From a virus (Duplodnaviria > Caudoviricetes): a stretch of DNA of 64,000 bases. The stretch is taken from IMG/VR virus record IMGVR_UViG_3300021255_004000, positions 1-64,000 of that record; one strand, written 5' to 3'. Positions 5,052 through 62,731 of the stretch are shown here, piece after piece; position 1 is the stretch's first letter, and each line of letters starts with the position of its first letter. The notes under the pieces were generated by a model. It saw only the letters and a list, made by a program, of their open reading frames with translations, was not told the origin of the DNA and did no database searches. Both the position numbers and the translations under genes were made by a program.

Positions 5052-5111
5052 TATAAATAAATTATCCTTCCAACCTTATTTATTATTGTCCCATATAGCT
5101 AAAAAAGTGGG
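5052..5111 (-). repeat. Dispersed ~60-bp intergenic element, copy 1
   Basis: TATAAATAAATTATCCTTC...TTATTATTGTCCCATATAGCTAAAAAAGTGGG, nearly identical to 27732-27790. Confidence 0.9.
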
Positions 5112-5112
5112 C

Positions 5113-6396
5113 TTAAATATGCATTCCAATAAGGCCTGGGATTTTCTTGTTGATTTTCTCAGGTGTTGGAGCTTGGTTATTAGGATCATCTTTTGTTGTA
5201 AATGACAAGTTGAATGTTGTGATGTTACCTGTAGTTGACTTTGTCATAATTACAATGTCATAAGTTGATGATGGCTGAAGTCCTTCAATTACAACTTCTT
5301 TCTGTTTACAGTTTTTAACAACAATGTTTTTCTGTCCTGGGATAACAAAAACTATTTCTTCAAAGAACTTATAATCAGCAGGCTTTACTGCATATTTGAT
5401 TACAGCTTTTGTAGGAGTTGATGTTGGCTCATAATAAATAAAACTATTCAAAGAGACTTCTGTTGTTTCTGTATAATATCCTTTGATGATGTCATAAGTT
5501 GTTTCATTTGTAAGTGACTTACCAAGTTGAATTATTTGTTCTTCAGTATAATCATCACTTTCAAAGTACTTACGGGCTATTGCATTCAATTCTGCATCAG
5601 ATGTATCAATTTCACCTTTTACATCAATGCTGTCCCATCTTTCATTTACAAACTCCAAAATAGTTTCTTCTGTAAGATAGACATCAGCTTCATCATCGTG
5701 TTTAAGGTGCTGCCATCTGTAAGGCAATGTTACAACTGCTTCTGATGTTGGGATAACAACTTGATAAGAACGAACTGTAAGTTCAACTTCAATCGGAAAA
5801 ATGCGCTGGCTTTCAAGGAACTTTAATTCTTCCCATTCAGGCTTTGTGTTGACACTTTCGATTGTGATGTTGGCAGGAATTGCAACTGGGTTGCCTTTCC
5901 AGTTAAAAACACAATACATCCAAACAGGATGCTTTGGTTCTTGTTCCCAATAAAGTCGTTGTGCTGCTTGTTTAACATCATCGCGTCTTGAATAATACAA
6001 TGTTACTTTCCACTTCGACTTGCAAGGCAAAATGCGAAGTCTTTTGTAAATTGTCATATCATAAATGCCATAAATTGTTTGTGATGCGTTTTGAGCATAA
6101 GGTCTGTCATCTGCCTGCCAATCATCAGATTGGTTGAATGCTCCAAAAGGCAATTCCAATGATGTTGGACGGAACTTGTCAACTAACAATTCTTCACCAG
6201 TTTTACCTTTATCCAATGTTTCAATTCTTCTACGGAATACTGCATCAGGCATCGCATAAACAACACGAGAATAATCATTCTTAAATAAAACTTCGGCCAA
6301 AAACTTTGATACGCAGCATTTTACAGAAAGATTGATGTCAATCCATTTCTTTTTTGCGTCATCATAATAGCCTTTTTGTGTCTCTTCTACTCCCAT
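5113..6396 (-). CDS. Putative virion protein with C-terminal fibronectin type III domain
   Basis: IEGLQPSSTYDIVI FN3 signature; leaderless ACTAA motif upstream. Confidence 0.55.
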   Translation of the reverse strand: MGVEETQKGYYDDAKKKWIDINLSVKCCVSKFLAEVLFKNDYSRVVYAMPDAVFRRRIETLDKGKTGEELLVDKFRPTSLELPFGAFNQSDDWQADDRPYAQNASQTIYGIYDMTIYKRLRILPCKSKWKVTLYYSRRDDVKQAAQRLYWEQEPKHPVWMYCVFNWKGNPVAIPANITIESVNTKPEWEELKFLESQRIFPIEVELTVRSYQVVIPTSEAVVTLPYRWQHLKHDDEADVYLTEETILEFVNERWDSIDVKGEIDTSDAELNAIARKYFESDDYTEEQIIQLGKSLTNETTYDIIKGYYTETTEVSLNSFIYYEPTSTPTKAVIKYAVKPADYKFFEEIVFVIPGQKNIVVKNCKQKEVVIEGLQPSSTYDIVIMTKSTTGNITTFNLSFTTKDDPNNQAPTPEKINKKIPGLIGMHI

Positions 6397-6449
6397 AAGT
6401 AATTAGTTAAAAATTCATATTGATGACTAATTTATTAGGAGACATATAA

Positions 6450-6896
6450 ATGGGCAAGAAATTGTTTAATGAGCCTATGACATTGTTTCAACAAAATGTA
6501 AATGAAATTATGAAGGAAAGCGCGTCTAAGGAGCTTATAGAAGATCTTATTCGTTTGAATATGTTTAAGAACGCTGAAAAGGACGAGAAACAACTCGTCC
6601 TTGTTGAACTCTATAATCTGCTTGGTGCGGAAAAGTTTATGGATGTTATGGACCTTCTTGAAGGTAAGACCATAAAGTTCCCTCATAAAGCTGATTTCAA
6701 AGAAACAATTCAGATAGCTTTATGTTATTATTATCGACAGTTCAAAGATTATTCGTGGGAAGAAATCAAAGAACTTATTAAGGATGACGACCTCAGTTCT
6801 GTTAAACTTGGGGTTCGTGTACAACAGCTTCAAAGATTTATCAACAAGTTTGGTGAATTGCGTTATCGGAGAGAATTGAATGAGCGACACAAATAA
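6450..6896 (+). CDS. Hypothetical protein, possibly a Mor/C-like transcription regulator
   Basis: LLGAEKFMDVMDLLEGKTIKFP resembles the Mor family; AGGAG RBS. Confidence 0.4.
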   Translation: MGKKLFNEPMTLFQQNVNEIMKESASKELIEDLIRLNMFKNAEKDEKQLVLVELYNLLGAEKFMDVMDLLEGKTIKFPHKADFKETIQIALCYYYRQFKDYSWEEIKELIKDDDLSSVKLGVRVQQLQRFINKFGELRYRRELNERHK

Positions 6897-7548
6897 TGTA
6901 AACGCTGTGATGTCAAATGGTCCTGAAGAAACAGCTGCGGCTGAACAGCTTGCAAAACAGGCTGAGGCAGATAAAGCAATAACAGAACTTCAAACTCTTG
7001 AAAAGCTTGCAGCAGTACCTTCAGAGAATGCTGCTGTTGCAAAGTTGAATGAGTCACCAATTCGTGATGTTGAAAGATCTTTAGGTGATTTTACAAAGCA
7101 CACATTTGAAATCATCAATAAAGAGTATCAGTTTCAAGAAACTATTGAAGCAGAAATTGCTGCACGCTTACAGCTTGATGCAAAAGATGGCGGCTTTACT
7201 CCTAAGGAATTGATTGCATTACATACAAACAACTCAGTCAACTTGAATGACCGTGTATCAAAGGTTTTGGGACCAACATTCACTTTGATGACAGAAGAAG
7301 TAAAAGCAGAAATTGCAGCTCGTACTGCAGAAAAGCAACAGCAGCAAGCTCAGGTAAACATTGCAATCGGTGGTAACACATCACCTGAACAGATGAAAGG
7401 CCTCAATGAAACAGTTGGCGGTGGTAATCGTGATGAAGCTCAGGCTATCTTGCAGGGCGCATTTATGTTCCAGCAGTTTTTACAGCAGCTTGGTGTAAAA
7501 ACTCCTATGGAAACCATTGCAAGTGCGCAGCAAGAAAATCAAAACTAA
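6880..7548 (+). CDS. Hypothetical helical protein
   Basis: 222 aa ORF overlapping the upstream gene; GGAG RBS. Confidence 0.7.
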   Translation: MSDTNNVNAVMSNGPEETAAAEQLAKQAEADKAITELQTLEKLAAVPSENAAVAKLNESPIRDVERSLGDFTKHTFEIINKEYQFQETIEAEIAARLQLDAKDGGFTPKELIALHTNNSVNLNDRVSKVLGPTFTLMTEEVKAEIAARTAEKQQQQAQVNIAIGGNTSPEQMKGLNETVGGGNRDEAQAILQGAFMFQQFLQQLGVKTPMETIASAQQENQN

Positions 7549-7572
7549 TTACTATTATTGAGGATTTAAGTA

Positions 7573-10500
7573 ATGGCATTATACACAAGTAATTCCGAGT
7601 TTGATTTAGAGACAAGAGTTCAGTTAACAAATGAAATGCCAACAACTCGTGATTATGAATATCTGCACCATTCATTAAGAAATGATACTTGGAAATGGCT
7701 TATCGGTACTGAAGATGTTACTTATGATTTGCCTGTAGGCGGCAGTGAATCTCATAATCTTGAAGCTCCTGTCAAAATTGTAAACGGAAAACAAGCAGAA
7801 AATTATGGTCCTAGCAAACAGCAGGTTTGGGACCCAACAACAGAATCTTATGTTGAAGAAACTCCTACTTTCCACAAGATGGAAATCAAAGGTGTATTAG
7901 CCGCTGAACACGACTTATTCTTACACGAGATTTATCGTTACTTAAGTTGCCTTTATCCTGACCATCCTGATTGGTTGAACTTGCTTACAAGAAATGAAAT
8001 CCTTGATGCTTTCAACAATGCAGCAGCGATGGTTGACTATAAGCCAAATAATGAATTCTTCCGTTTGGTTGCAGAGACAATTCAGTCTGATGATCCTGAT
8101 GTTGAAGAGTTCAAACTTAATTTAAGAAACCTCACAAGCAATGCAGCCCGCCGTAAGTTTTATGGTTCAATGTTAGGCTATCGTATGTATGGCCACGATG
8201 CATTTGAAAATGTATCAATCTTTCCAGTAGGAAAAGCATTAACATTGGATTCAGTAAATGAAAATGAGTGGCGTGAAAACAAAAAGAAAGGCTTTGACGC
8301 AAAGAAGTACATTATTGATACTTTTGATGAACGCTATCAAACATTGTTCCGCCGCATTGACTGGTTGGGTAATAACCGTGATACATCATTTACTAAAGCA
8401 AATGGTTACACAATTCCATCTTACTCAATCCCAGGCTATGAAGACATTCAGTTTGAGTTTGTTTCAAGTAAGACAGGTGAATTCACTTCTGATGTTTACA
8501 ATCTTTCAAAAGACTCTGCTTATTCATTCTATGATTTGACAACAAATGGTCAGACAACTACTGGTTCTATTTCTGATAAGGTTGAACTTAACACCTATGA
8601 GCCAACTATTACAGAAACAATGTTGTCATACTTCTCAGGTGATGACAAGATCATAGGTTTGCAAACATCAATTTCATCTTCAATGGTTTATAACCAACTT
8701 ACAAAGTACAAGCCTTTTGAAGAAATCATTGCAACATTTAAAGAAAATGGCATTGCTGATAGCTTATATAACATCTATATGTCACAAATGCCATTCAGTG
8801 CAAATGGAGAAGTAAGAGCAGGTAACACACAGTGGTTCTCAACATTTATTTCAACAGCAGCAAGCTTTGTATCAGGCTTTGGTGGTACAAGTACTCTTTT
8901 TGAGAAAGTTGATTATTCTTATAACCCAGTTATTAAAGATACAATTATGTTGCCTATTGACATTATGCGCGACTGCTATCCAAAAACAGTTGAGTTTAAT
9001 GAAGATGAAACTGTTAAAAACAGAACAGCTGAATTGGACATATCATCAGCAACTCTTAATAAAGGTGACATCATTTCAATTTTGGAATACACTGACTTCC
9101 CTACTCCATATAAAGTTGCAGGTGGTACTTGCGGACAGTTAAGATGTCATATCACAACACCTACAAAGTCTTATGCAAACTACAATGCAATTTCAAAGTA
9201 TGAGCCTTTTGATACTGCAAATGATTACATTACATCTGACGACAACTACTGTGCTCTTATTCAACTTAAAGATGGAAGCTATGGTGTTCTTTATGGTTCA
9301 TTGAACTTGACTTGGCAAACATTGTCAGAAAATGGACACGCATTTACTTGTCCTAAAGATATTACATTCAACATTCGTGCAATTCCTGAAAAGAAGTCGG
9401 AAGACATTTACAAATATGTTTATGGCTCAGATGCAGATAATCTTATTGATGAAATAAGAGATGAAATTACATTAAAGACTCGTGAACTTGAAAAGCATTA
9501 CAACTTGGTTGTTCAGGATTGTAATGATGATAGCAAATATATTGATCTTTATGTAGGTCTTCCTTCAAGAATTAAAGAACAAGAAAGTTTAATCAAAGAA
9601 CTTCTCAAAGCAATCGAAGACTTGCCCGAAACAGCAACTCCTGAAGAAAGTGCAGCTGCAAAAGAAGCTTATGACTCTGCAGTTGAACAACTTGCTGTTT
9701 ATGAAGATGCTTACAAAGCTGCTGTTGAAAAACTTGAAGAAGTTGCTTATTCAAACTTTGAACATTATAAAGACACTGCATCAGACTTGGAAGATCTTAA
9801 TGAACAGCTTGCTGAATATCTTGAAAAGAAAGATGAATTGATGGAAAACCGTTCATTATTTGTTGATAAGGAAAGATGTTTTACTGCAACACGCGGCTGT
9901 AAAGTTGAGTTCTTTATTTTCAGTTCAGGCGAAGCTTTTTCAAAATTGCCGTTCATTATTGATGATACTTATATTTCTGAAATATCATTAGGTAACATTT
10001 CAATTCAGCCTATGTTCCTTTCAGACGAAAACCACATCAAAATGGTTCAGGTTGACAACTTTATCTTTGCTGATTATGATCCTATTACTTTGCGTGATAG
10101 CACATTCTACCAACTTTATTCATTGATGGAAGATAAAGCAAGAGAAGTTGCTTTTGTTGGTCATAACAGTTTGAAGATTTACAATGAATCAGAATATGAT
10201 GTTTCAGCTCAGGTTTACATTGATAAGTCTGTAGGTAATGCTTGCTATGAAATGCAGTTCTTGACAGATGATGCAAGAACAAAGTATGAATCACTCTCAA
10301 TTGGTTCAAAAGTTTCTGGCCCAGGTATCTCAAGTAACACATTTGTTACAAAGTTGAGCAATTATGTTGCAACTGTGAATACATCTTTGCCTAAAGGCGG
10401 AACACAAACATATACATTCAAATGTCCTGTAACGACAGCACCTGAGTCAATTAAAAACGATCCTTTTAACTACAAGCGCGTTATGTACGCAAACAGCGAG

Positions 10501-12510
10501 TATGAAAAAGAGTCATTCTTTGACCACGGTGTTTATGGTACATCAGAATGGCCTTCAATCGAAAAGGCTGTTATGAATGGTGACTTGAATGATAAACAGA
10601 TTCTTAATAAGTCAACATTCTTCAATGTTGTAAAATATCTTTATGAAGACAAGCTCACTGAAGATAAGAATCTTCTTATCCCATCAGTTGCAAAGAACAC
10701 AAGAAATGTTTTTGTTGAAGTAAACATTGATAAAATTATTAAAGCAAAGAACCATTCAGGTGACACAGAAAACTTGATGAATGTTGAATGGCTTGACTAC
10801 ATTTCAAACAATGATGAACTTGAATTAGCAAAGGAGAGTGTTAATGTTGGTTCAAACTTGATACTCAATGCTGATACATCAGGCTATGCTTCTTTGCTTT
10901 CTAAAACAGAATACACAGATCCTAACCTCAAAGTGTTGTTCCAAACAAACAACTGGGGAGATGATACAATTCCTGCTTATGTACAGATCGGTACAGGTGG
11001 CAGTGGTTTAAGAGATTACTTCAAACTTGTAAGTAACATTCAATATCCAAATGTTTATGGTGCAACATTCTGGGATCATACAGTTGAGCCTTATGAAGAT
11101 ACAAACAATAACATCATTGATGATTGGATTAAAGATGGCCCAGATGGCCAAAAAGTAAATAAAAGAGCAACTTGGGCAAATGTTGATAATAAGTTGTCAA
11201 AGCAAACTGACTACAACACTTATGAAAACATCGACAAGCCACTTTTTGAAATACCTCTTAATGAATACAATATGAATCTTCATACGATTGCAAACAATCG
11301 TGAATATTCAACTATTGACATTATGTTCTATGAACAAAACTTCAAGAACATTTCAAAAGAATACAACTTAAGCATTGGTTTGCAGAAAACTCTTTCAAAC
11401 AAGTTGCTTGCTTCAGATGATTACATTTCAATCGACTCAGAAGATTATGCAAGAAACACACCTGAAGATGAAAACTTGAAAAACATTTACTACTTCTATG
11501 ATGATGGTTCAAAAACAAGCAATAATAAAGGTAAGTTTAAGGTTGCTGTAAACAATGACGCATTTACAGAGTATAGTGTAATTGTTGGCGGTCTTCTTGG
11601 TTATACACCTTGGTATTACAACAAGATGACAAACAAACTTACTAATACATCTTTCAACTTGGATATTACAAGCTTCCCAGGATTAGTTGAGGCAGCAAGC
11701 AATGGTGATGATCTTTCTGAATTCTTAAGAAGATTTATGATAATCAAAGCTATCTTCGACTTCAGTACAGACAATGCAACTGTCTTGAATGAATATTCAA
11801 AAAACTTTCTTGGTTATGGTAATGAAGAATACGATGGTTTCTTTGATGATCTTTCTGCCTATGAAAGCATTTTCAAAAACAAGTTGATTATGTTTACATA
11901 CCTCAGAGGAAACTATGAAAATAACGGAGCTGATATTTTTGGCCTTAAAGATTATGATACACTTGCACTCTTCTGGGCAAATGACAAAATCAACTTTGTA
12001 AAGATAAACAAAAACTACACTTTGTGTACAACTGTTTATCCAAAGAATATAAACACAAATTATAATGAATATCTTGTATTTCACGGTTACTTTACATATC
12101 CTCTTATTAAGAAAGACTGTGTTGAAAAGTATGATGAAGACCCTGAAGACTTCCGTCAGATGATGGCAACATCTGATGAATATGTAATGGATAACAGCAA
12201 CTCAATCATTAAGTATACATCACAGGTTTTCAATTCAATTAAGTTGCCAAGAAATCATATTGCAGATGGTTCATATGATTTCAAACTTTTCATCGACCCT
12301 CACTTTGTTTCAACAGGCTATCGTTATGATGATTATGTTGAAAATGGTGTAAATGCTGCAACTGTTGAATATTGTATCTCACAATCAGCAATTCGTTATG
12401 ATAAAAAGCATAAAGTGTTCTACACAAATGCAACTGTTGTTGAAGACGGTGCTCTTGATAACTCAATGGATAATGACTTCGAAGTAATGCAAAGTATGCT
12501 GAGCGAATAA
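7573..12510 (+). CDS. Giant virion protein, putative baseplate wedge/tail protein
   Basis: 1645 aa; RRKFYGS motif resembling baseplate wedge proteins; internal coiled coil; late motif upstream. Confidence 0.6.
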   Translation: MALYTSNSEFDLETRVQLTNEMPTTRDYEYLHHSLRNDTWKWLIGTEDVTYDLPVGGSESHNLEAPVKIVNGKQAENYGPSKQQVWDPTTESYVEETPTFHKMEIKGVLAAEHDLFLHEIYRYLSCLYPDHPDWLNLLTRNEILDAFNNAAAMVDYKPNNEFFRLVAETIQSDDPDVEEFKLNLRNLTSNAARRKFYGSMLGYRMYGHDAFENVSIFPVGKALTLDSVNENEWRENKKKGFDAKKYIIDTFDERYQTLFRRIDWLGNNRDTSFTKANGYTIPSYSIPGYEDIQFEFVSSKTGEFTSDVYNLSKDSAYSFYDLTTNGQTTTGSISDKVELNTYEPTITETMLSYFSGDDKIIGLQTSISSSMVYNQLTKYKPFEEIIATFKENGIADSLYNIYMSQMPFSANGEVRAGNTQWFSTFISTAASFVSGFGGTSTLFEKVDYSYNPVIKDTIMLPIDIMRDCYPKTVEFNEDETVKNRTAELDISSATLNKGDIISILEYTDFPTPYKVAGGTCGQLRCHITTPTKSYANYNAISKYEPFDTANDYITSDDNYCALIQLKDGSYGVLYGSLNLTWQTLSENGHAFTCPKDITFNIRAIPEKKSEDIYKYVYGSDADNLIDEIRDEITLKTRELEKHYNLVVQDCNDDSKYIDLYVGLPSRIKEQESLIKELLKAIEDLPETATPEESAAAKEAYDSAVEQLAVYEDAYKAAVEKLEEVAYSNFEHYKDTASDLEDLNEQLAEYLEKKDELMENRSLFVDKERCFTATRGCKVEFFIFSSGEAFSKLPFIIDDTYISEISLGNISIQPMFLSDENHIKMVQVDNFIFADYDPITLRDSTFYQLYSLMEDKAREVAFVGHNSLKIYNESEYDVSAQVYIDKSVGNACYEMQFLTDDARTKYESLSIGSKVSGPGISSNTFVTKLSNYVATVNTSLPKGGTQTYTFKCPVTTAPESIKNDPFNYKRVMYANSEYEKESFFDHGVYGTSEWPSIEKAVMNGDLNDKQILNKSTFFNVVKYLYEDKLTEDKNLLIPSVAKNTRNVFVEVNIDKIIKAKNHSGDTENLMNVEWLDYISNNDELELAKESVNVGSNLILNADTSGYASLLSKTEYTDPNLKVLFQTNNWGDDTIPAYVQIGTGGSGLRDYFKLVSNIQYPNVYGATFWDHTVEPYEDTNNNIIDDWIKDGPDGQKVNKRATWANVDNKLSKQTDYNTYENIDKPLFEIPLNEYNMNLHTIANNREYSTIDIMFYEQNFKNISKEYNLSIGLQKTLSNKLLASDDYISIDSEDYARNTPEDENLKNIYYFYDDGSKTSNNKGKFKVAVNNDAFTEYSVIVGGLLGYTPWYYNKMTNKLTNTSFNLDITSFPGLVEAASNGDDLSEFLRRFMIIKAIFDFSTDNATVLNEYSKNFLGYGNEEYDGFFDDLSAYESIFKNKLIMFTYLRGNYENNGADIFGLKDYDTLALFWANDKINFVKINKNYTLCTTVYPKNINTNYNEYLVFHGYFTYPLIKKDCVEKYDEDPEDFRQMMATSDEYVMDNSNSIIKYTSQVFNSIKLPRNHIADGSYDFKLFIDPHFVSTGYRYDDYVENGVNAATVEYCISQSAIRYDKKHKVFYTNATVVEDGALDNSMDNDFEVMQSMLSE

Positions 12511-12548
12511 CAATAAGACTAATTATTAGCTCAGGAGATATCATATAA

Positions 12549-15500
12549 ATGAATTACACATTAGACATTTCTAGTGAACTTAATGAATACAGCCGTAAGA
12601 TTAAAAAACTTGAGGCTTCTTACGGCTCAAGTTATTCAAAAACAGATGTCGTGTCAAAAGTAAAAGAACTTACAACTGCATTAGGCCTTGCAAGTTGCGA
12701 CATTGAAAAGTCAAACACATTCATTCGTTTCAATTTGAAAAACTCTGCAGGTGCAAATTGTGTTGAGGTAAAAGCAACACCTGTAAGCAAAACAGAAAAA
12801 ATCGTTGTTAAGTTTGCTGAACACAAGTACTTCAAAAATCTCAAATATCTTTTCGGAGCATATAAAACAGAATACAATCAAGATGAAGGCTCATCAGATT
12901 TAACAAAAGAAGCTTATATCAGAAGTATTATTGGCGCAAACTTCCACGCAACAGATTTGTCACCTTCTGACAAGTTTGTATCAGTTGAAGAGGTTGACTT
13001 AAGAAGTCCATATCTTGAAGCATTAAACAATGTTCTTTTTGAGTCAACACGCGACATTGAAGGTGAGATTTATGGTATCAACGATGACGGTGAATTGTAT
13101 GTTTGTGGCAAGCGTACAGCTGCTTTCCAAAGACTTTATGACAATAAGTTAATTTCTTCTCTTGATGATATTGTTCCTGCGGTAGTTATTGATAACACAG
13201 TTGTAAAAGCTATAAGAGATAATGCAGTTGACTTCAGAGACAATGACGAATATGAAAAGCCAAAGTTTATGAGTATCAAGGTTAAAAAGCCAATGAATGA
13301 TACTTATGATGTTGGTAACGACCCATCTTTCAAGTACTTCAAAAACTTGTTGGTATTTGAAGCAAAACTTAATTTGGCTTCTCCTCGACTTGTTGAAAAA
13401 TCAGATTTTGATAATGGCGAGTTTCAACTTGTATGTAATGCTTTAACTCAAGGTGACGAAATCCTTTCAGGTATTGCTCTTGATGGCAGTGGAACAAAAA
13501 CACATACAATTCTTACAAATGTAAAAAAGAAATGTAGATATCTTGCAGCACAGGGTGATGACCTTGTTGCAATTATGGCTGACGGTATGGTTTATACCGC
13601 AAAGAATGTAAACTTCGAATCTGCAAAGTCTATTGATATGGAGACAGAAGGCAAAGAGTTTTCTGTTGAAGGCGCCCAGCTTATTGATATGATCTATGAT
13701 GACACTGAAGGTTGGGTAGGTACATTTGGTTATGAAGAAACTCAGGGTGAAGACTTTTACGGTGATAAGTATTACAGATTTATGATTTCAAAGTCATTGA
13801 ACTCTGTAACCCAGGCAGGAAGTGAAGCTGCTTCAATGTATGCTGCTCCTTTTGAAATCAGTGAAAACCCAGTTGCTTTGACATTCGCTGCTCGTTCAAA
13901 TGACAACTTGATTATGTCACCTGTTACAACAAGACTTGAAGTTGTTGATACTTACGGCGGAGTATTTGGTGTCCCTGAAACATCTTTTGTAAATCCTAAA
14001 GATATTGCAATTAAGTCTTATACAGAAACTGATGTTACAGGCGGTGCAAATAATGATTTAGCTGATGTAGGTCCAATCGTTACAACAGATGACAATAAAG
14101 AAATACTTCAAAACATTCTTGAAGGTCCCTATGTTGTAAACCCAAGCGAGTATGAAGAAGACGGTTCAAAAATGTACCAAAAGATTTTCTCTGATGGTGA
14201 TATGGACATCGTACTTCAGCAGGATTACATCTTTATCAAAACTCAACTTTATACTGTTGATGAAAACGGCGATTATGAAAGAACGATGACAAGAGGCAAA
14301 CACTGGCTTGGTGCAAAGTTGCCAATAACACTTGACACAACTTTGTTGAAGTTGCGCTCAATGCCTGTAAGTGGTACAACATCTTGTTACAACTTTGTTC
14401 TTGACGACATCAAGACATTCTGTTCTTGGGCGCTTGATACTGCACAGAAAGAAGAGATTGGTGACAACTATACATTTACAAACTTGTCACTTGAGGAATC
14501 ATTTACAGCAGATGAACTTAACTGTTTCAAAAATGCAATTAAGCCACTTTCAGAAAATTATACTGGCAGTGCAACAGAAGGCCGTGGTCTTTTGACATAT
14601 GCTCAGTTCTTGTCACTTGGTGTAACATACTATTCAGGTAACACAAAACTTGATGTAACGAATGACTCATTTGCAGTTGCTCCTGAAGCCATTGATAAAG
14701 TTGTATTTGAGACAGGCCTCCCACTTACAAATGATTTGAAAGTTGATGATACAGCAAGATTCCAACTTGTTGGTACAAAAGATAATAATGTTATTATAAT
14801 CTCAAAAGAATATGCAAATGCAATCGACTTTGAAGAAGCATATCGACTTTACTTGCTTCACGCATTTACTTATGTTCGTGGTATTCGTGAATATGATGCT
14901 TTCGGTGCAAAAGTTGTAACAAACATTTATTCATTCGGAAGCAAGATTTATTTCAGATGCTACACAGGCGATATGTTCTTCATTGACAAAAAGTACTTGC
15001 ACAAAGCAGAAGATATTGAAACAGTAAGCAACTGGAGAGTATCACAGCAGCCAGGCCTTTCACATATCAACGGATGGGATGTTGAAGACCTTAAGAACAT
15101 TGGCGGTTATGAAACAGTTACATTGAAAGATGGTAAGTTGCTTCCTATCAACAATAAAGAACACGCAATTTACTTCTTCAAGTTGACATCACCATTATTT
15201 ACTTTGCCTGATAATCAGCATATGTTCTTTGGTGGTTATGCATTCCCATCAAAAACAATTTATGATAAGTACGCTTCTATGGGTGGCGGCAAGTTTGATA
15301 CAACTCAGGAATGGTGGAAGATCAACCTTGAAAATTGGATTGCAGCTGATGAAAGCTCAGGTAAGACACCAGTTGTTGTTTACTCAAATGATGGCGGTGC
15401 TACATTCAATATATTACCTGTAAGACAGTACTTGCCTGAAAACTTCTTTAATGATGGTATTGACCGTCAGGTTGCATACTTCACAGAAACAGAAGATGGT

Positions 15501-18500
15501 AAAGTTGCAGGCTTTGTAAAAGAAAACGATAACGGCGCAGAGTCATACACAACAAATCAGATTGTTATTGACTTTGACGACTTTAATAAGGTTGACTCAA
15601 CTGCAACAAAATGGGAACAGGTTGGCATTCCTCGTGACGGTGAAGTAAGAAGCTTCTATAATGATGCAGGCAAAATTACTTACACAACAGGCCGCCTTGG
15701 TTTTGGTGTAGATGTTGATGTTTCACAGATGCTTGGTTCAGATACATTCAACTTCGACTTTACAGGTAACAACACCTTAGTTATTCCTGATGGTCTTAAA
15801 GTTGCAAAAGTTGAAAATGGCAATGCAATTAAGTTTAATAAATCAATCACAGATGAAGTTACCACAGGTACATATCGTGTATTACTTGCTGCATATACAA
15901 AAACAGATATTCCTTTCCAAGAAGACTACTTGTCAAAGGATTCATCAATTCTTTCAGACTATTTAAGATCAAACGGTGCACTTAAGGTTGACAGTGTTAA
16001 GGCAGTTACAAATGCTTTGACAGCAAACCGTGCTTATTTTGAAAACTTCCCAACTGTTCAGGAAGATACTTCAAAAACATATTATGAATATAATGGCGAT
16101 GAAGTTGTTGAGTTGACAAACAACTATAATGAAAGAATTATCAAATGTACTGAAGACGGTGAAAAGTTTGCATTCTCAAATCGTAAAGATAGCGATGGCA
16201 ATCCAATCGAAAGTTTGATTGACTTTGCTTCATCATTAGGTAATGGCCTTCAAGCAAGTCAACTTGTTGCACAAGGTAAACCTGCTCATACATTAAAAGA
16301 CTTCTTATCAAATGCTGAATGTATGGAAGATGATTCAGAATTCACATCATTGGTTAAAGGGACAAAGTCATTTGCATATATGAAGGAGTTTGATGAAGGA
16401 AGCGTACTTGCAATGTTTGATGCAAATACTGCTTTGGCAACAATCCTTGAAAAAGAAGGTATAGTCGAAAACACAGAAGATACATCAGAGTATGATGCTG
16501 TTGTAAACTTTGTTGAGAATATGGAAGATCAGTTCGGCGGTCCTGATAACAACTTTACAGATGCAGCTGCTCGTTTCGTGTTCAAGGAAATAGGAGGTAA
16601 GAAGTATCTTTATGATAAGAAGTACCAGGTATTCGTACTTAAGTCAAGAAGATTCATTTGTGGTACATTATCAATTCCTTATACATTCTACAACGGTGGC
16701 AATGGTATGACAGTTATTCCTGACCCACTTATTGAGTACAGCACTGAAACAGGAAATATGATTAAAGCAGGTGCACTTGCTTCAGGTATTTATTATCATC
16801 CAATGGGCTATGGCGGTTTAAGAAACAATACTTCAATCACAAAGACAACTCCTTGGAAGAGAGACCCTGCTGCATTCACTGATGATTATTTGAAAAACTC
16901 TGTTGGTGATTATGTGTTCTTGACAGATAATGTTGGTTCAAGAATCAGAACATATGATGCTATTCAACTTGTTGAAGATGGCGGCTATGACGTTTCTTAT
17001 GACAGCTTCTTAAATGATGGAGCAAATGAAATTACAGTAAAGTCAGGCGACACTGAAACAACATATCACTATTATAAACTTCATAAGACTGGTATCAAAC
17101 AATACCACTCTTGCGATTATGTAAGAAAAGACTCAAAAGTTTATTTGAGATTCTATAAAAATGCTCAGCGCATTACTGACTTTGAACTTGTTGATGACTG
17201 CTTATTGAATTACAACGGTGAAAAGTGCTATGAAGCAAGCATCGATGAAAGTGGATTCCTTGTTGTAGGTGAATGCGTTGGTACGCCTTCATCAACAGTT
17301 ACAGCAAAGTTTAAGGTTCATTATACAGCAAATGGTGTTGCATTTACAGATGAAGTTGAGTCAACCTTTACAGTAAACGGAAGCAACAGTGTACCTTGGG
17401 TCGATGCAATATCAGGAGAAGACACATCAGTAATTTATTACAAAGGCCGTGGTCTTATTTCAAAACCTGATGAAGGTTCAAGTACAAACACAAAAACTGT
17501 ATCATACAAGTTGACTTTGACTGATGCTGATGATAGCTTTGACTTGTCAACTGCTGACATTAAGACAACTGAATGTTCTTACTCAATCGAAAACGGTAAA
17601 CTTGTTATAACATTTGTCGCAGGTAACGACTATGTTGAAAGAAGTGTATCAGTAAATGGCACAACAGTTTGGAAAGCAGCAATTATTCAACTTGATTATG
17701 AAATATCAAAACAAGTTGTACTTACAGGACTCAAGAAACTGAGCGGTGAAGATGAGTCAAGAACTGACTTCTATTTTGGTGATATGCTTGCTTCGGATAA
17801 CATCAACATTCCATCAGACTTGATTGTTTCAAGAAGTGGAACATTGCTTTATCTTGGATATAAAAATCATATTGATGCTCCTGAAGGAACAATCGTTACA
17901 GGTGCTTATGGTTATTCAATTTCAAAGAAGCCTAAGTACAGTACATTCCAAAACTTGCTTTATGGCGAAGGTGTAATGATTGACAAAGGCATAGCATATG
18001 ATGAGTCTGTTCTTACATCAATGAAAGTTTCAGCAACAGCTGAAGACAATTCAGAGATTAAGTTGAATGCTCCTGTAACATTCAATGAAGCTTACAACGA
18101 TGGTGTTGAACATTACTTCAAGTTTAAGATTCTTACTGTATCTGAACAGTCACTTGCGCCAAAACATATGAATGATGAAAGTTATTATTATGAATTGTCA
18201 AAAGAACAGATGAGCTTGTACACGCCTAACCGTGTATGGTACAACCCTAAAGGTTCACCTGTGCCACCTATCAAAGTTGGTTCAAAGATTTTCAATTCAG
18301 AAAACAACTATGCATATTATGATGAAGATTATCGTAACGCAAATGATGTAAACATTTATATGTGTGATGAAGCAGGCCACTATGTAAACTTTGATGAAAA
18401 CGGCGTTGAGTATCGTCTTGATAGCAAAGTTGATGGAACATACACTGGTGACTGTTCAGCAAATGTTTATATGGGTGTTGATAACAGATATGTATCACCA

Positions 18501-19151
18501 AAGCCAATCAACCCAACTTGTCAAGACTGGTATTATGAAAACATTTATACTCCAAACAATGAGGTAAATCCTCTTTGGCAGATAATTCATATTTCACCAA
18601 AGATTGAAAACAAGAAGTGGGTTCAGAAGGTAAGCATTTGTCGTTATAAGAAGTCGGGTTCTTCACAGTTACTTGTTGATGATGTTGAACACCCTTATGT
18701 TTCAATGAACGAATTAAATCAAATTATTGCTGAAGATGGTGCCTTAAGAGTTAAGGAAAACTTCCTCAACTTCAATGCTGCTGACGGCGATATTGAATTA
18801 CTTCTTTCAGAGGGAGATGAACATTACAAAAATCTTATCAATTCAAATGATGGTGATATGACATTGTATGGTCTTAACTTCAGTGTAAACAAGTTAAAGA
18901 ATATGTTTGACAATGATCACTCAGAGTTATCGGCAACATTGCAAGCTTCTTATTCTGTAAACACATTGAGAGACTTTACAACAAATGTTCAAGATGACTC
19001 AACTATTGCAAAGATTACAGAAATGGGTATCTTCGATAAGAATCACAAATTGATTGCTTATGCGCAGTTCCCACCTATCGAGTACCGTACAGAAAAACAA
19101 CACGCTGCATTTACAGCTGTAATTTATCACGGTAATATGACAGGCAACTAA
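12549..19151 (+). CDS. Giant tail fibre/baseplate protein with C-terminal tail-collar-like domain
   Basis: 2200 aa; C-terminal ITEMGIFDKNHKLIAYAQFPPIEY (tail-collar fibre motif); Asp-box YSNDGGATF. Confidence 0.7.
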   Translation: MNYTLDISSELNEYSRKIKKLEASYGSSYSKTDVVSKVKELTTALGLASCDIEKSNTFIRFNLKNSAGANCVEVKATPVSKTEKIVVKFAEHKYFKNLKYLFGAYKTEYNQDEGSSDLTKEAYIRSIIGANFHATDLSPSDKFVSVEEVDLRSPYLEALNNVLFESTRDIEGEIYGINDDGELYVCGKRTAAFQRLYDNKLISSLDDIVPAVVIDNTVVKAIRDNAVDFRDNDEYEKPKFMSIKVKKPMNDTYDVGNDPSFKYFKNLLVFEAKLNLASPRLVEKSDFDNGEFQLVCNALTQGDEILSGIALDGSGTKTHTILTNVKKKCRYLAAQGDDLVAIMADGMVYTAKNVNFESAKSIDMETEGKEFSVEGAQLIDMIYDDTEGWVGTFGYEETQGEDFYGDKYYRFMISKSLNSVTQAGSEAASMYAAPFEISENPVALTFAARSNDNLIMSPVTTRLEVVDTYGGVFGVPETSFVNPKDIAIKSYTETDVTGGANNDLADVGPIVTTDDNKEILQNILEGPYVVNPSEYEEDGSKMYQKIFSDGDMDIVLQQDYIFIKTQLYTVDENGDYERTMTRGKHWLGAKLPITLDTTLLKLRSMPVSGTTSCYNFVLDDIKTFCSWALDTAQKEEIGDNYTFTNLSLEESFTADELNCFKNAIKPLSENYTGSATEGRGLLTYAQFLSLGVTYYSGNTKLDVTNDSFAVAPEAIDKVVFETGLPLTNDLKVDDTARFQLVGTKDNNVIIISKEYANAIDFEEAYRLYLLHAFTYVRGIREYDAFGAKVVTNIYSFGSKIYFRCYTGDMFFIDKKYLHKAEDIETVSNWRVSQQPGLSHINGWDVEDLKNIGGYETVTLKDGKLLPINNKEHAIYFFKLTSPLFTLPDNQHMFFGGYAFPSKTIYDKYASMGGGKFDTTQEWWKINLENWIAADESSGKTPVVVYSNDGGATFNILPVRQYLPENFFNDGIDRQVAYFTETEDGKVAGFVKENDNGAESYTTNQIVIDFDDFNKVDSTATKWEQVGIPRDGEVRSFYNDAGKITYTTGRLGFGVDVDVSQMLGSDTFNFDFTGNNTLVIPDGLKVAKVENGNAIKFNKSITDEVTTGTYRVLLAAYTKTDIPFQEDYLSKDSSILSDYLRSNGALKVDSVKAVTNALTANRAYFENFPTVQEDTSKTYYEYNGDEVVELTNNYNERIIKCTEDGEKFAFSNRKDSDGNPIESLIDFASSLGNGLQASQLVAQGKPAHTLKDFLSNAECMEDDSEFTSLVKGTKSFAYMKEFDEGSVLAMFDANTALATILEKEGIVENTEDTSEYDAVVNFVENMEDQFGGPDNNFTDAAARFVFKEIGGKKYLYDKKYQVFVLKSRRFICGTLSIPYTFYNGGNGMTVIPDPLIEYSTETGNMIKAGALASGIYYHPMGYGGLRNNTSITKTTPWKRDPAAFTDDYLKNSVGDYVFLTDNVGSRIRTYDAIQLVEDGGYDVSYDSFLNDGANEITVKSGDTETTYHYYKLHKTGIKQYHSCDYVRKDSKVYLRFYKNAQRITDFELVDDCLLNYNGEKCYEASIDESGFLVVGECVGTPSSTVTAKFKVHYTANGVAFTDEVESTFTVNGSNSVPWVDAISGEDTSVIYYKGRGLISKPDEGSSTNTKTVSYKLTLTDADDSFDLSTADIKTTECSYSIENGKLVITFVAGNDYVERSVSVNGTTVWKAAIIQLDYEISKQVVLTGLKKLSGEDESRTDFYFGDMLASDNINIPSDLIVSRSGTLLYLGYKNHIDAPEGTIVTGAYGYSISKKPKYSTFQNLLYGEGVMIDKGIAYDESVLTSMKVSATAEDNSEIKLNAPVTFNEAYNDGVEHYFKFKILTVSEQSLAPKHMNDESYYYELSKEQMSLYTPNRVWYNPKGSPVPPIKVGSKIFNSENNYAYYDEDYRNANDVNIYMCDEAGHYVNFDENGVEYRLDSKVDGTYTGDCSANVYMGVDNRYVSPKPINPTCQDWYYENIYTPNNEVNPLWQIIHISPKIENKKWVQKVSICRYKKSGSSQLLVDDVEHPYVSMNELNQIIAEDGALRVKENFLNFNAADGDIELLLSEGDEHYKNLINSNDGDMTLYGLNFSVNKLKNMFDNDHSELSATLQASYSVNTLRDFTTNVQDDSTIAKITEMGIFDKNHKLIAYAQFPPIEYRTEKQHAAFTAVIYHGNMTGN

Positions 19152-25200: not shown

Positions 25201-25237
25201 ACAAAAATAATATAAAAGAAGTTTTGGAAAAGTTCAA
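25201..25237 (-). promoter_or_regulatory. Early promoter TTGAAC-N17-TATATT
   Basis: Conserved copy. Confidence 0.75.
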
Positions 25238-27694: not shown

Positions 27695-27731
27695 AAAAAT
27701 ATATTAACATCATAATGAAAATGAAAATTAC

Positions 27732-27790
27732 TATAAATAAATTGTCCTTCAATTCCATTTATTATTGTCCCATATAGCTAAAAAAGTGGG
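27732..27790 (-). repeat. Dispersed ~60-bp intergenic element, copy 2
   Basis: TATAAATAAATTGTCCTTCAATTCCATTTATTATTGTCCCATATAGCTAAAAAAGTGGG. Confidence 0.9.
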
Positions 27791-27831
27791 TTTGATTGCA
27801 AAATGTTAATATATACTTACAGGAGTTTTTA

Positions 27832-40725: not shown

Positions 40726-40756
40726 TTAATATAAAAGAAAAACCAGGGAAGTTCAA
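40726..40756 (-). promoter_or_regulatory. Early promoter overlapping the upstream terminator hairpin (40741-40768)
   Basis: TTGAAC-N17-TATATT; drives the operon containing the sigma factor. Confidence 0.7.
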
Positions 40757-41157: not shown

Positions 41158-41194
41158 ACAATAATAATATAAAAGACCTGATGCAAAAGTTCAA
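41158..41194 (-). promoter_or_regulatory. Early promoter TTGAAC-N17-TATATT
   Basis: Conserved copy. Confidence 0.8.
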
Positions 41195-41211: not shown

Positions 41212-41262
41212 CCCACTTTTTTAGCTATATGGGACAATATAAAATATAATGAAAAATGGAAT
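41212..41262 (+). repeat. Dispersed intergenic element, copy 3 (inverted)
   Basis: CCCACTTTTTTAGCTATATGGGACAATA core is the exact reverse complement of copies 1 and 2. Confidence 0.85.
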
Positions 41263-41294
41263 TATTTTACTAATTCTATTATAAGAGGATAGTA

Positions 41295-54686: not shown

Positions 54687-54723
54687 ACAGTAATAATATA
54701 AAAGACTTCTGTCAAAAGTTCAA
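54687..54723 (-). promoter_or_regulatory. Early promoter TTGAAC-N17-TATATT
   Basis: Conserved copy. Confidence 0.8.
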
Positions 54724-54778: not shown

Positions 54779-54794
54779 CTTTTATCTGCTTTAT

Positions 54795-55088: not shown

Positions 55089-55096
55089 TTTTTCGA

Positions 55097-56470: not shown

Positions 56471-56508
56471 ACTATCCTCCGTGGGTTACTTTGTTTTGTT
56501 TTATTGTT

Positions 56509-56545
56509 ACAGTAATAATATAAAAGTAACTTGCGGAAAGTTCAA
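56509..56545 (-). promoter_or_regulatory. Early promoter TTGAAC-N17-TATATT
   Basis: Conserved copy embedded in a TGCGGAA/TTCCGCA hairpin. Confidence 0.8.
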
Positions 56546-56597
56546 AAAATTTTTGAAAATTCCGCATTTTTTTTAATTATTCTGCCATACTCGCTGA

Positions 56598-57494: not shown

Positions 57495-57507
57495 TTCAAT
57501 TCACCTC

Positions 57508-59033: not shown

Positions 59034-59065
59034 TTAGCATTTATACCTGAAATTATATTAACAGC

Positions 59066-59575: not shown

Positions 59576-59733
59576 TTTATAAGTCCTAATTCTTTTGCTG
59601 GGCAATCCTTGTCACAGTCCTCACAAAAACAGTCTGGACAACCTTCATCATTTTGTTTCTTCTCTTTTTCTTCAGTGGTCTTTTCCGCTTTATCAAGCAT
59701 TGCTTGAAACATTTCCTTTTCTGAAACTTCCAT
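59572..59733 (-). CDS. 53-aa Cys-rich protein (not in the ORF track)
   Basis: MEVSEKEMFQAMLDKAEKTTEEKEKKQNDEGCPDCFCEDCDKDCPAKELGLIK; fills the gap, with an ATGA overlap to the next gene. Confidence 0.7.
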   Translation of the reverse strand: MEVSEKEMFQAMLDKAEKTTEEKEKKQNDEGCPDCFCEDCDKDCPAKELGLIK

Positions 59734-61057
59734 AATATGTACCTACCTTATCGTACATATAATTAGCGGCTTCAGCAATAATCGAAGCAATGTCACATTC
59801 TTTATCATAATAGAATTCATCATAAATGTTGTAAGCAGTTATGCCCATCTGTTTCAACTTCCAAACAACATAAAGTTCCAAATAACTTTCAAAATAAAAC
59901 ACTGATGAGGAATGATCTTTTCCCTCAAGGTCCTCACAAATGTTGTAAAGCTTTTTCCAATCTTCAAACATTGCAGGCTTTACAACAGTCAGCCATCTTT
60001 CATAAGCTTCACCACTTGGGTACTTTGCTTTAATCAAATCAGAATTAGAGAAACAAAACTCTGAAAATGATTTGTCAGCGGACTTACCAAAACGCAACCG
60101 CATATGAACAGACTTCATATATTCACGAGGAAGATTAAGACCTGAACGATCTGCCATTTCCTGATAAAAGTCAAAGTCACGGTCCATCCACTCGCCTGTT
60201 GACATTAAATGACTTATACGAGGAACAGCAGACTTAATATCATAACGATACTTCAACCCATTTTGCTGACACCAGACAGTACGATCTGTTTCTCTTGCTT
60301 CATCATTTTCTGTTGCAATATATTTTGAATAGGCGCGGCCTGTAATTTTATTTCCTTCACACTTAAAACGAAGACGCTTTTTGTTATACTCGGACTTGTC
60401 TTCATTATATTCATCAAGCATTCTTTTGAAATCAGAAATTGTTCCTTTTGTGAAGTCAACAACTGCTTGCTTATCAAAATTATCCACAAGCTTATTATTG
60501 AACTGTGTAAGGCCACTTCTTATTGTTTGTTTTTGTTTCTTATTGAACACTTCAACTGTAATGTTGTCGGCAATATCAACAACGGTGTTTGCTGTGGGCT
60601 TGTCTTCGTGTTCTTCAAGATATTTTTGATATTCGTGCGGAAATGATTTTATAATTCCGAGTTGATTAAGACCATAAAGTTTACAAAAGTTTTCATCACC
60701 GTGGCCGAACTGATAGTGTTTATTGATAACATAAATGATTCCACAGTTCTTCATTCCTTTTATCCAATTTGACTGTTGCATACCTGAAATATCAAGGCCT
60801 GCTTTAAGGAATGTATCTTTTGTGAAGTAGATTCCGTGGTTCTGTTTTACATCTCCAATGTTGTAAGAAGATGCAAGAAAGAACATAAGCTCCTTCAATT
60901 TTTTCAATCGCTCTTCAACCTTCAGCTTCAAAGGAAAGTGTTCGATTAAATAATCATCAGTATAAATCTGACCTGAGTATGTCATTATCTCAAGACGCTG
61001 TTTATTTCTTTCAACATCTTTGTCATACTCATTCTTGATAAGAGCATTTAAGTCCAC
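59693..61057 (-). CDS. Protein with a minimal family-A polymerase-like catalytic domain
   Basis: TGRAYS; YDIKSAVPRI (motif A); DFY; REYMK...RFG (motif B); IYDEF (motif C); GTG start with GAGG RBS. Confidence 0.6.
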   Translation of the reverse strand: MDLNALIKNEYDKDVERNKQRLEIMTYSGQIYTDDYLIEHFPLKLKVEERLKKLKELMFFLASSYNIGDVKQNHGIYFTKDTFLKAGLDISGMQQSNWIKGMKNCGIIYVINKHYQFGHGDENFCKLYGLNQLGIIKSFPHEYQKYLEEHEDKPTANTVVDIADNITVEVFNKKQKQTIRSGLTQFNNKLVDNFDKQAVVDFTKGTISDFKRMLDEYNEDKSEYNKKRLRFKCEGNKITGRAYSKYIATENDEARETDRTVWCQQNGLKYRYDIKSAVPRISHLMSTGEWMDRDFDFYQEMADRSGLNLPREYMKSVHMRLRFGKSADKSFSEFCFSNSDLIKAKYPSGEAYERWLTVVKPAMFEDWKKLYNICEDLEGKDHSSSVFYFESYLELYVVWKLKQMGITAYNIYDEFYYDKECDIASIIAEAANYMYDKVGTYYGSFRKGNVSSNA

Positions 61058-61081
61058 AATTATAACCTCTATGGAATTATA

Positions 61082-61492
61082 TTAACCTTTTACAAAAAAA
61101 GAAGCCAACATATTTTCTGTTCGACTTTGATGATTTGGTGTACCGTAGTCAGGCTTTTCAAATAATTCATAAACGCCTAATACGATGCGGTTTGGATCTC
61201 CGCCTCTGTCATAAATGTTATCCCTTATTTTGATAAGTTCTTCATCATTTACAGGAATCTCAATTGGGTCAAACTTAAAGCAAGATGTATGTCCATTGCT
61301 TCTTGTATAAGTAATCTCTTCATCTTTTTCTTCAAGAAAATAAACTTCTGAGAAGAAGTCTCTCAAGTGAGCAACTCTATCATTTGCAGCTTGAAAGAAT
61401 GCTTCTTCATCAGCGAAACCCATATCTTCCATTATGTATCGGGGAGTTTTTGACACCAAACTTTTCAATTCATTAAAAGTGATGTCTTTCAT
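61082..61492 (-). CDS. Hypothetical protein
   Basis: Operon context. Confidence 0.65.
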   Translation of the reverse strand: MKDITFNELKSLVSKTPRYIMEDMGFADEEAFFQAANDRVAHLRDFFSEVYFLEEKDEEITYTRSNGHTSCFKFDPIEIPVNDEELIKIRDNIYDRGGDPNRIVLGVYELFEKPDYGTPNHQSRTENMLASFFVKG

Positions 61493-61502
61493 TTACACCG
61501 CC

Positions 61503-61943: not shown

Positions 61944-61988
61944 AAGTCACCTCTATATGTATATTAACAATTTAGTCAGAAATCACAA

Positions 61989-62010
61989 AAGGTACCCAGA
62001 CGGGTACCTT
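61989..62010 (-). terminator. Intrinsic terminator
   Basis: AAGGTACCC-agac-GGGTACCTT. Confidence 0.75.
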
Positions 62011-62033
62011 CAACTTATTCACATGATTTTTGA

Positions 62034-62582
62034 TTAAAATGTTGCGATGATTTTTTCAAGGCGAGCAACGCAAGCAGGATTTACACCGTTGAAAGTTGCT
62101 TTCCAATTTGTTTTCTTTACCTTCTGGAAGCGAGCCTTCATCCAAGCATAGCGTGTAGGATTCCAAATTGAAAGGAGGTGTGGGTTTGAAAGGTAAAGGC
62201 GGAATGTTTCTGCGAAAACTTCGCGGTTATTAGGCTCGTAGTTGCTAACGCTTCTTTCGCCCATTGGGATTGTTTCCCAGTTGAAATAATGTTCGTGAAT
62301 GTAGTGACCAACCTCGTGAAGGATTGCCCCGTAAATTGTATCATCAATTACATTGTAGCGAGCAGATTTTTCATTGTCGAAAATTGTGTTTCCAGGGACA
62401 ACTGCAACCACATCTGTTCCGTGAGTGTAGTAGCCTTCTCTTTTGTAGTTGCAAGCTCTTTTCTCAATCGAAAGTTTTGGAACAGCGTAACCGTTCAACT
62501 GGCAGAAACGAACAACAAGGGCCTTTGCTTCGTCCTTCATAATTTCCTTCATCTGTGCCTTGTTCGTGATTACAACTGCCAT
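62034..62582 (-). CDS. Small early zincin metallopeptidase (anthrax-LF-like HExxH...E)
   Basis: ILHEVGHYIH...SNY...REVFAETFRLY..P; own early promoter. Confidence 0.7.
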   Translation of the reverse strand: MAVVITNKAQMKEIMKDEAKALVVRFCQLNGYAVPKLSIEKRACNYKREGYYTHGTDVVAVVPGNTIFDNEKSARYNVIDDTIYGAILHEVGHYIHEHYFNWETIPMGERSVSNYEPNNREVFAETFRLYLSNPHLLSIWNPTRYAWMKARFQKVKKTNWKATFNGVNPACVARLEKIIATF

Positions 62583-62607
62583 ATTTGTTCCTCCTTGTCG
62601 GTTGTTT

Positions 62608-62644
62608 ACAATAATAATATAAAAGACTCGTGCACGAAGTTCAA
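62608..62644 (-). promoter_or_regulatory. Early promoter TTGAAC-N17-TATATT
   Basis: Conserved copy. Confidence 0.8.
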
Positions 62645-62675
62645 AAATCTAATGATAATTTTTCAAACTTTTGAG

Positions 62676-62731
62676 ACTTTTTTAGCTATATGGGACAATA
62701 TAATAATAGGAAATTGAAGGATTTATTTATA
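62676..62731 (+). repeat. Dispersed intergenic element, copy 4 (inverted)
   Basis: ACTTTTTTAGCTATATGGGACAATA...GGAAATTGAAGGATTTATTTATA. Confidence 0.85.

Follow-up and report, generated by a model that had tools for sequence, protein, structure and literature searches.

What is the function of a short intergenic element that a large phage carries in several copies, each with the same letter-perfect core? The question is raised by positions 1 to 64,000 of the IMG/VR record IMGVR_UViG_3300021255_004000, a virus of the Caudoviricetes (this whole stretch of 64,000 nucleotides (nt) is called the window here). An initial annotation, made from the sequence of the window, described four copies of a ~60-bp element and proposed a binding site for a phage protein, such as a replication or priming origin, a packaging or genome-organisation site or a master operator. 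The simplest reading is now the very one that it had listed as contrary to this proposal, namely that the cassette constitutes a fourth, phage-specific promoter class beside three short promoter motifs (classes I, II and III) of the same DNA. Judging from sequence comparison, we put the probability of this reading at roughly 55%. Read in this way, the cassette is a phage-specific promoter of a known kind, unusual in its length, its bipartite form and the lack of a recognisable reader gene.

The core of the element is the 25-mer ACTTTTTTAGCTATATGGGACAATA. The claim of an identical core in four copies is borne out: there are four exact 25-mers in the window and none in 100 shuffles, so that no copy is expected by chance, and no extra match is found in the window at up to three mismatches. 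All four copies are intergenic, and they align with one another over the core and a short downstream stretch only. Copy 1 lies on the minus strand (5052-5108), with the 25-mer at 5084-5108 followed by ATAAAT, GGAAGGA and AATTTATTTATA (5052-5063). The stop codon of the upstream gene (5113-6396, minus strand) stands 4 nt before it, and a class II motif (5040-5047) and a further minus-strand gene (3793-5019) come after it. Copy 2, also on the minus strand (27732-27787), consists of a 25-mer at 27763-27787 and the downstream block, between a divergent class II motif on the plus strand 17 nt away (27805-27812) and a second class II motif (27701-27708) that precedes an SbcC-like gene (25598-27694, minus strand). 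On the plus strand, copy 3 (41215-41275; 25-mer at 41215-41239) has a downstream block that merges with a class III motif, ACTAATT, at 41269-41275, ahead of a gene for a protein of 1619 amino acids (aa; 41295-46154, plus strand), while copy 4 (62676-62733, plus strand) comprises a 25-mer at 62676-62700 and GAAGGATTTATTTATATT. Each copy is aimed at a gene start, as the initial annotation had noticed, being co-oriented in four of four cases with a downstream open reading frame (ORF) that starts at 5019, 27694, 41295 and 62844 or 62886, respectively. For copy 4, the ATG at 62886, behind GAGGAG, is the likely start rather than 62844. Alignment also confirms the flank GAAGGA..TTTATTTATA that copies 1, 2 and 4 were said to share, 15-30 nt downstream; copy 3 has a weaker version of it, GGAATTATTTTAC.

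A hairpin closed by CCCA/TGGG, to which attention had likewise been drawn, fares less well. Copies 1-3 can form it, but with little stability and no significance (DNA, -1.7 kcal/mol, z 0.18); copy 4, 10 of 14 related contexts and the version of the element in the sister clade described below do not have it. Another hairpin, CCGCTAACCGTGGAAAGCGG, is GC-rich and lies at 62775-62806 (plus strand) in the 185-nt leader between copy 4 and the start at 62886, after a class III-like motif, ACTAAAT; this leader is not unusually structured overall (z -0.7).

How far does the element extend beyond the window? Exact-pattern scans of IMG/VR and of the JGI metagenomes gave 30 loci, and once duplicates were removed the identical 25-mer was found in 14 distinct gene contexts of related metagenomic phages (the near clade). 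Beyond the 25-mer, similarity among these loci is confined to short patches around the element, at 75-89% DNA identity. Variation within the near clade is limited to two single-base changes, G17C in a second, inverted copy of locus L002 and C2G in L008/L030. Unbiased sets of copies are provided by the four in the window, three in contig G003 and 10 in a 306-kb genome of the sister clade; the window and G003 copies together show one mismatch in 175 positions. A same-strand ORF start follows at 34-143 nt in 13 of the 14 near-clade contexts (23 of 24 distinct copies), the exception being the inverted, mutated copy of L002. In that locus (4296-4384), two copies stand head to head, 39 bp apart, and the one with G17C is aimed at the preceding gene from the 3' side; a duplicate in decay and a source of antisense RNA are both conceivable.

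Conservation in related phages, which had been suggested as a test, is therefore strongly positive, in the near clade as well as in the sister version. The public phage genomes of INPHARED contain no DNA or protein match. The element was also said to match no recognisable tRNA, CRISPR repeat or insertion-sequence end. Rfam gives no match at gathering score over the whole window, which dismisses a known RNA family, and a CRISPR or solitary repeat or a bacterial repeat is dismissed by the lack of CRISPR arrays in the window and by the 20-mer having no match in 185,579 prokaryotic species genomes.

Over the near-clade contexts, information content is maximal at positions 1-25 and falls to background at position -1, giving a sharp 5' edge. 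It is moderate at positions 26-31 (ATAAAT) and high again at 46-55 (AATTTATTTAT), after a purine-rich stretch that often reads GAAGGA. The unit is therefore ~60 bp long and bipartite, as the initial annotation implied. Twenty-five contiguous, fully informative positions differ from the pattern of a -35 box, a spacer and a -10 box. Accommodating a sigma70-type promoter fails in two further ways: the -35 position falls outside the conserved block and is variable (ccc, gag, atg and others) while the would-be spacer is invariant, and TGnGACAAT, which scores as an extended -10 in copy 4, is replaced by GAGGGA in the sister version, where TATAAT is found 7 nt upstream and hence out of register. The consensus sequences of sigma54, sigma28 and Bacteroidetes-type promoters do not fit by eye. 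The element is a conserved cis-site that no host-type consensus explains.

An indication of a dedicated reader comes from the sister clade, whose homologues of a 454-aa protein encoded in the window (59693-61057, minus strand) have 62-65% identity. The 25-mer is absent from the loci around these homologues (62-63% identity), even at up to seven mismatches, and two sister contigs of 77 and 106 kb (183 kb together) hold no copy at up to three mismatches. A k-mer census of the same two contigs yields another repeated intergenic element, AA(TT/AA)TTTGAACTATAATGGAGGGAA, and the sister version of the element can be written AATTTTTGAACTATAATGGAGGGAA, homologous to the 25-mer. Its exact 20-mer occurs in 10 copies on one contig of 306,108 bp, JAZNWZ010000130.1, whose ends overlap by 141 bp and which is therefore a complete circular assembly of a jumbo-phage genome. 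This contig was deposited within a metagenome-assembled genome of 'Candidatus Fimenecus' (Firmicutes), a placement that is probably a binning artefact and no evidence of the host. The sister 20-mer is also found on many IMG/VR contigs, and the 25 positions are essentially invariant across 22 contexts.

An ungapped alignment of the two versions matches at 15 of the first 20 positions, with the shared frame A.TTTTT.A.CTATA..GGA. An AT-rich block (AATTTAT..) comes ~20 nt after the core in both versions, reading (R)TAAATTTAT in the sister clade; the first base of this second block is at position 46-48 (near clade) or 45-49 (sister clade), and the -10 character of the block is a resemblance. Each clade keeps its own version letter-perfect across paralogous copies, and the two versions differ in concert. 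Such clade-wise change is what one would expect if the cis-site evolved together with a single reader acting in trans. A degenerate search of IMG/VR for the bipartite pattern retrieved only the two known clades and two chance matches in coding DNA. Two other explanations of the conserved letters were rejected. The AT-rich segments ATAAATAA and TTATTTAT could pair as an RNA stem, but no covariation is seen (own versus swapped partners, permutation p 0.24), and a mini-ORF in the sister element (GGAGGG..ATG) is present in only three of five copies, with differing lengths.

The window is collinear with the sister clade over ~60 kb, so that individual copies can be followed. At copy 2, the site is kept in the sister clade, where a class I promoter comes directly after the element; in the window, SbcC and a 139-aa gene have been inserted between the two. 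Copy 3 is missing from the syntenic sister site, where class I and class III promoters abut, which makes it a ~75-bp insertion in the window. The site of copy 4, before the operon of the 454-aa gene, is likewise kept, but the element is flipped there and stands in tandem with the class I promoter. Next to copy 1 is a gene with another location in the sister genome. On this comparison, the cassette has been gained, lost and inverted as a unit between the clades, and it marks synteny breaks, which coincide qualitatively with all four window copies. Two neighbouring plus-strand genes of the window, encoding 1645 and 2200 aa (7573-12510 and 12549-19151), have as their counterpart in the sister clade a single ORF of ~3,911 aa (contig G2, 38912-50647), which is 36% identical to the product of the second gene over 2,297 aa; the pair was either split in the window or fused in the sister clade.

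Could the orientation of the copies reveal a genome-wide function? The initial annotation saw the two left copies pointing left and the two right copies pointing right. This polarity is real locally, where it tracks the neighbouring gene, but it has no genome-wide counterpart in the complete sister genome: orientation around the 306-kb circle runs -,+,-,-,+,-,-,-,-,+, and there is therefore no global polarity. All 10 copies are intergenic although the genome is 91% coding. Divergent gaps, at 20% of the intergenic length, hold five of them; three or four are flanked by co-directional genes and share their direction, and the copy at 304237 (plus strand) faces the terminator of a convergent gene. 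With ~10 copies, always in promoter regions and oriented by their local genes, the proposal of an origin, a packaging site or a genome-organisation site, as drawn from polarity, loses its ground. Cumulative GC skew has four local minima in the window, and the four copies lie at or near them; these minima are simply the points where gene direction diverges.

The placement of the element at promoter hubs becomes clear from the other promoter motifs. Class I is sigma70-like, TTGAAC-N17-TATATTATTACTGTAA, with seven occurrences in the window; class II, GTTAATAT, occurs 11 times, each 10-25 nt before a ribosome-binding site (RBS); class III, ACTAATT, occurs ~10 times, mostly before large plus-strand genes. 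A class I promoter, TTGAAC-N17-TATATT (41166-41194, minus strand), is divergent from copy 3, and another (62616-62644, minus strand) is divergent from copy 4 and heads the operon that contains the 454-aa gene. The remaining class I promoters of the window are at 1589-1617, 25209-25237, 40728-40756, 54695-54723 and 56517-56545, all on the minus strand. Thus seven of seven in the window, and 24 of 24 in the complete sister genome, are on one strand, a bias that points to a strict one-strand rule for early transcription. The element was described as additional to the promoters that its genes already have, and the class II and class III motifs are indeed present.

In the near clade, any of the three promoter classes may come after the cassette. 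The class I -10 is then found at position 77-96 (mode 84-86), class II at 60-62 or 80 and class III at 55-88; the class I -35 falls 30-48 nt after the 25-mer, so that the distance to the next promoter varies. This freedom of distance and of downstream class fits an independent module. Two contexts, B and F, have no other recognisable promoter, and context F (L030) has the cleanest layout, which runs from a stop codon through an intrinsic terminator, the element and an RBS to the ATG; a terminator upstream of the element is found in only one of 24 contexts. The upstream side is more regular. The back-to-back arrangement of copy 2, 17 nt from a divergent class II motif, recurs with a spacing of 17-19 nt in at least five contexts from both clades, and the spacer sequences are unrelated, which makes position 1 a functional upstream edge. 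Moreover, a 17-nt gap has no room for an upstream promoter on the same strand; the element is therefore not an RNA site fed from upstream, and a nut- or put-like site is ruled out at copy 2. The genes downstream are mostly of unknown function, with some in DNA metabolism (SbcC, SbcD, an exonuclease) and a probable tail-fibre gene, and no single temporal class can be read off from them.

How would such a cassette work? In the favoured reading, the 25-mer would be the recognition core of an autonomous, directional transcription-initiation cassette of ~60 bp, its contiguous 25 bp being read by a phage-encoded specificity factor that co-evolved with the sequence, perhaps a polymerase, perhaps a sigma-like subunit or an activator. 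Genes that have promoters of their own would gain, from a cassette placed upstream, expression in a further temporal window. We infer from the sequence patterns both that it initiates transcription and where and by what enzyme it may do so, and two layouts can be envisaged. In a T7-type layout, transcription may start at the GG after CTATA(N)(N); in that of an activator with a -10-like box, the start may be ~10 nt beyond the AT-rich second block. The register kept across clades favours a start at the GG after CTATA, and the fixed position of the second block favours a 25-bp box followed by a -10-like block.

Both layouts have precedents. The promoters of the single-subunit RNA polymerases of T7, T3 and SP6 are ~23 contiguous bp, ending in ..CTATA GGGAGA. 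Like them, the element is a contiguous, asymmetric block of ~25 bp that is identical within a genome and different between related phages, with an AT-rich 5' part followed by CTATA and then GG(G)A, and it lies upstream of genes, co-oriented with them, in ~10 copies per genome. Unlike them, it has one or two extra bases between TATA and GG and a second conserved AT-rich block ~20 nt downstream, and in place of a polymerase matching PF00940 only a remote fold of the family-A/T7 RNA polymerase type was found. The second precedent is the activator-dependent middle and late promoters of phages, such as those with the T4 MotA box and sigma appropriation, Mu Mor/C or P2 Ogr. The likeness here is in a phage-specific upstream box in place of a -35 and a frequent tandem arrangement with early promoters, which would give expression in two periods; the AT-rich second block, at a roughly fixed distance, may correspond to their -10-like box. 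However, the element is 25 bp and asymmetric rather than 9 bp or a dyad, and the sigma70-type -10 candidates inside its core are out of register between clades.

Several points weigh against a promoter. Exact retrieval with a 20-mer biases the apparent invariance among relatives. In two of about 25 contexts (L002 copy C and the copy at 304237 of the 306-kb genome), the element is an orphan, directed at the 3' end or terminator of a convergent gene. No sigma70 region 2 or 4, beta-prime, T7 RNA polymerase or MotA C-terminal family has a match in the complete sister genome. PF00940 (RNA_pol) gave none in the scanned window proteins, in partial relatives or in the 306-kb genome, and none in control genomes either, which leaves the sensitivity of this search unproven, and the MotA C-terminal domain PF09158 gave none on the 306-kb contig, other activator families not having been searched. 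Finally, seven of the 10 copies of the 306-kb genome lie upstream of class I or class I-like promoters at a distance of no more than 100 bp (five in tandem, two divergent). Of nine tandem cases from the two clades, six have the class I -10 at position 84-86, a regularity that would also fit an upstream regulatory site.

Such a site, whether an operator or an upstream activating sequence, would be bound at the 25-mer by a phage DNA-binding protein that switches the adjacent class I and other promoters, in the manner of Fis- or UP-type upstream regions. In the near clade, too, eight or nine of 14 contexts are within 100 bp upstream of class I, in tandem or divergent. The element before the polymerase-fold operon, flipped between the clades, remains upstream of the same class I promoter, and a divergent class I-like promoter has even the orphan copy at 304237 on its upstream side. 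Some copies also have, 3-10 bp away on their 5' side, an inverted repeat that looks like an operator, TTGACA-N13-TGTCAA (with TTAGACA variants). It is carried by L004, L012/L013 and L021 in the near clade and by the copies at 103348, 114307, 193970 and 304237 of the 306-kb genome; on the 106-kb sister contig, all three of its occurrences are beside the element, and in the window none of the four copies has it. Placement between divergent early and later promoters also recalls the p4 sites of phi29. There, inverted repeats stand at fixed positions, with the early A2b/A2c and late A3 promoters divergent; the element, in contrast, is asymmetric, at variable distance and also present where no early promoter exists. 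No class I promoter is close to the element in copies 1 and 2 or in contexts B, F, G and I, and context F holds no other promoter to regulate at all. Where class I is present, its spacing spans 69-96, out of helical phase, and only five of 24 class I promoters have a tandem copy. A contiguous, asymmetric site of 25 bp is also unlike the sites of dimeric regulators. We regard regulation of neighbouring promoters as unlikely, though less so than the readings that follow.

Which protein might read the element? Candidates were sought among the proteins of the window, which is part of a large phage and encodes a clamp loader, NrdD, the SbcC-like protein, a C5-methyltransferase and a DnaG-type primase. 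For several giant proteins no family could be matched, and they were rejected as RNA polymerases, with no Pfam, PHROG or PDB sequence matches; DxDGD is absent from the 1645-, 2200-, 994- and 719-aa proteins, and a lone DTDAD in the 1619-aa protein belongs to an acidic low-complexity stretch. The last protein weakly resembles tail fibres, which is a weak lead only. The initial annotation named as partners the helix-turn-helix protein at 40784 and the PolA-like protein at 59693-61057, the 454-aa protein mentioned above. The former is a poor candidate for a conserved reader, and so is a 182-aa protein encoded at 62034, because neither has a homologue in the sister contigs, syntenic region included.

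The 454-aa protein has held up better: it is conserved in the sister clade and its fold is suggestive, but no specific tie to the element was found other than that the two occur together in both clades. Its gene has its own class II motif (61079-61086) and is two genes upstream of the DnaG-type primase. The protein is single-copy and is conserved at 45-98% identity in ~20 metagenomic clusters. It has no Pfam, PHROG or PDB sequence match and no exonuclease domain, and a profile of the family found nothing among PDB sequences either. In a structure model (predicted local distance difference test score, pLDDT, 81.6), residues ~30-153 form a predicted winged helix matching ORC2, MCM8 and MarR-type proteins at Z 6-7. 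Residues 160-452 are predicted to form a palm-fingers domain of the family-A polymerase/T7 RNA polymerase type, with matches to the apicoplast DNA polymerase (Z 8.8), yeast mitochondrial RNA polymerase (Z 8.3), T7 DNA polymerase (Z 7.7) and T7 RNA polymerase (Z 7.0), all in a range of Z flagged as possibly generic ('common arrangement'). The top Foldseek matches are all family-A DNA polymerases (E ~0.04). The motifs R-x3-K-x7-FG and YDEF are invariant in the family, and five residues after the motif-A Asp273, as aligned by reading of the sequence, there is Val278 and not the steric-gate glutamate of DNA polymerases. The 454-aa protein is thus an attractive but unproven partner, whether for transcription or for priming, and its role is speculative. 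That the cassette would be the cognate promoter, or promoter-type origin, of this winged helix fused to a minimal polymerase-fold core seems quite unlikely. If this were so, no smaller single-subunit RNA polymerase or primer synthase with sequence specificity would be known, and the protein would recognise its promoter by a module that has no relation to the one in T7 RNA polymerase.

A related possibility is that the cassette serves replication, as a promoter-type origin or priming site where the 454-aa protein binds the 25-mer and makes a primer, with the AT-rich block as the unwinding region. The primary origin of T7 is a promoter with an AT-rich stretch, and oriF and oriG of T4 are promoter-type origins. 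A 25-bp site with an AT-rich block at a fixed distance would suit such a function, as would the location of the 454-aa gene in a replication module, the pairing of an ORC/MCM/MarR-like winged helix (Z 6-7) with a family-A/T7 RNA polymerase-like fold (Z 7-8.8) and the position of the window copies at the skew minima. However, these minima merely reflect gene direction, the Z-scores are in the 'common arrangement' range, and protein and site were found to be connected by nothing more specific than co-presence. An arrangement of ten directional origins with a gene start at each would also lack parsimony, and we consider an origin very unlikely.

The cassettes called PeSLs in T4-like phages combine a sigma70 early promoter with a stem-loop terminator (PMC4122927, PMC2839356). 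The element resembles them as a short conserved intergenic cassette, repeated around a large phage genome and found at indel or replacement boundaries between relatives, and differs in having neither a sigma70 consensus nor a conserved hairpin. That it might persist, PeSL-like, by mediating modular gene shuffling, or by nuclease-driven spread, is suggested by the synteny breaks at all four window copies (copy 3 inserted, copy 2 separated, copy 4 flipped, copy 1 beside a relocated gene), but this is hardly credible as its function, since shuffling would explain spread and neither 25 letter-perfect asymmetric bases nor concerted change between clades, there are no terminal repeats, conserved hairpin or adjacent nuclease, and PeSLs are themselves functional promoter-terminator units, which makes mobility a side effect rather than a rival function.

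The annotation of large uncultured phages of the gut and rumen draws on almost no knowledge of how their transcription is programmed. In this lineage, three short promoter motifs, together with the long cassette as a fourth, would provide a handle for the prediction of operons and for tracing modular gene exchange. The cassette is also a defined DNA bait for the specificity factor of a phage in which neither a sigma factor nor an RNA polymerase gene can be recognised. Should this factor turn out to be the 454-aa protein, it would represent a new type of single-subunit transcription or priming enzyme and, together with its site, a compact orthogonal expression part.

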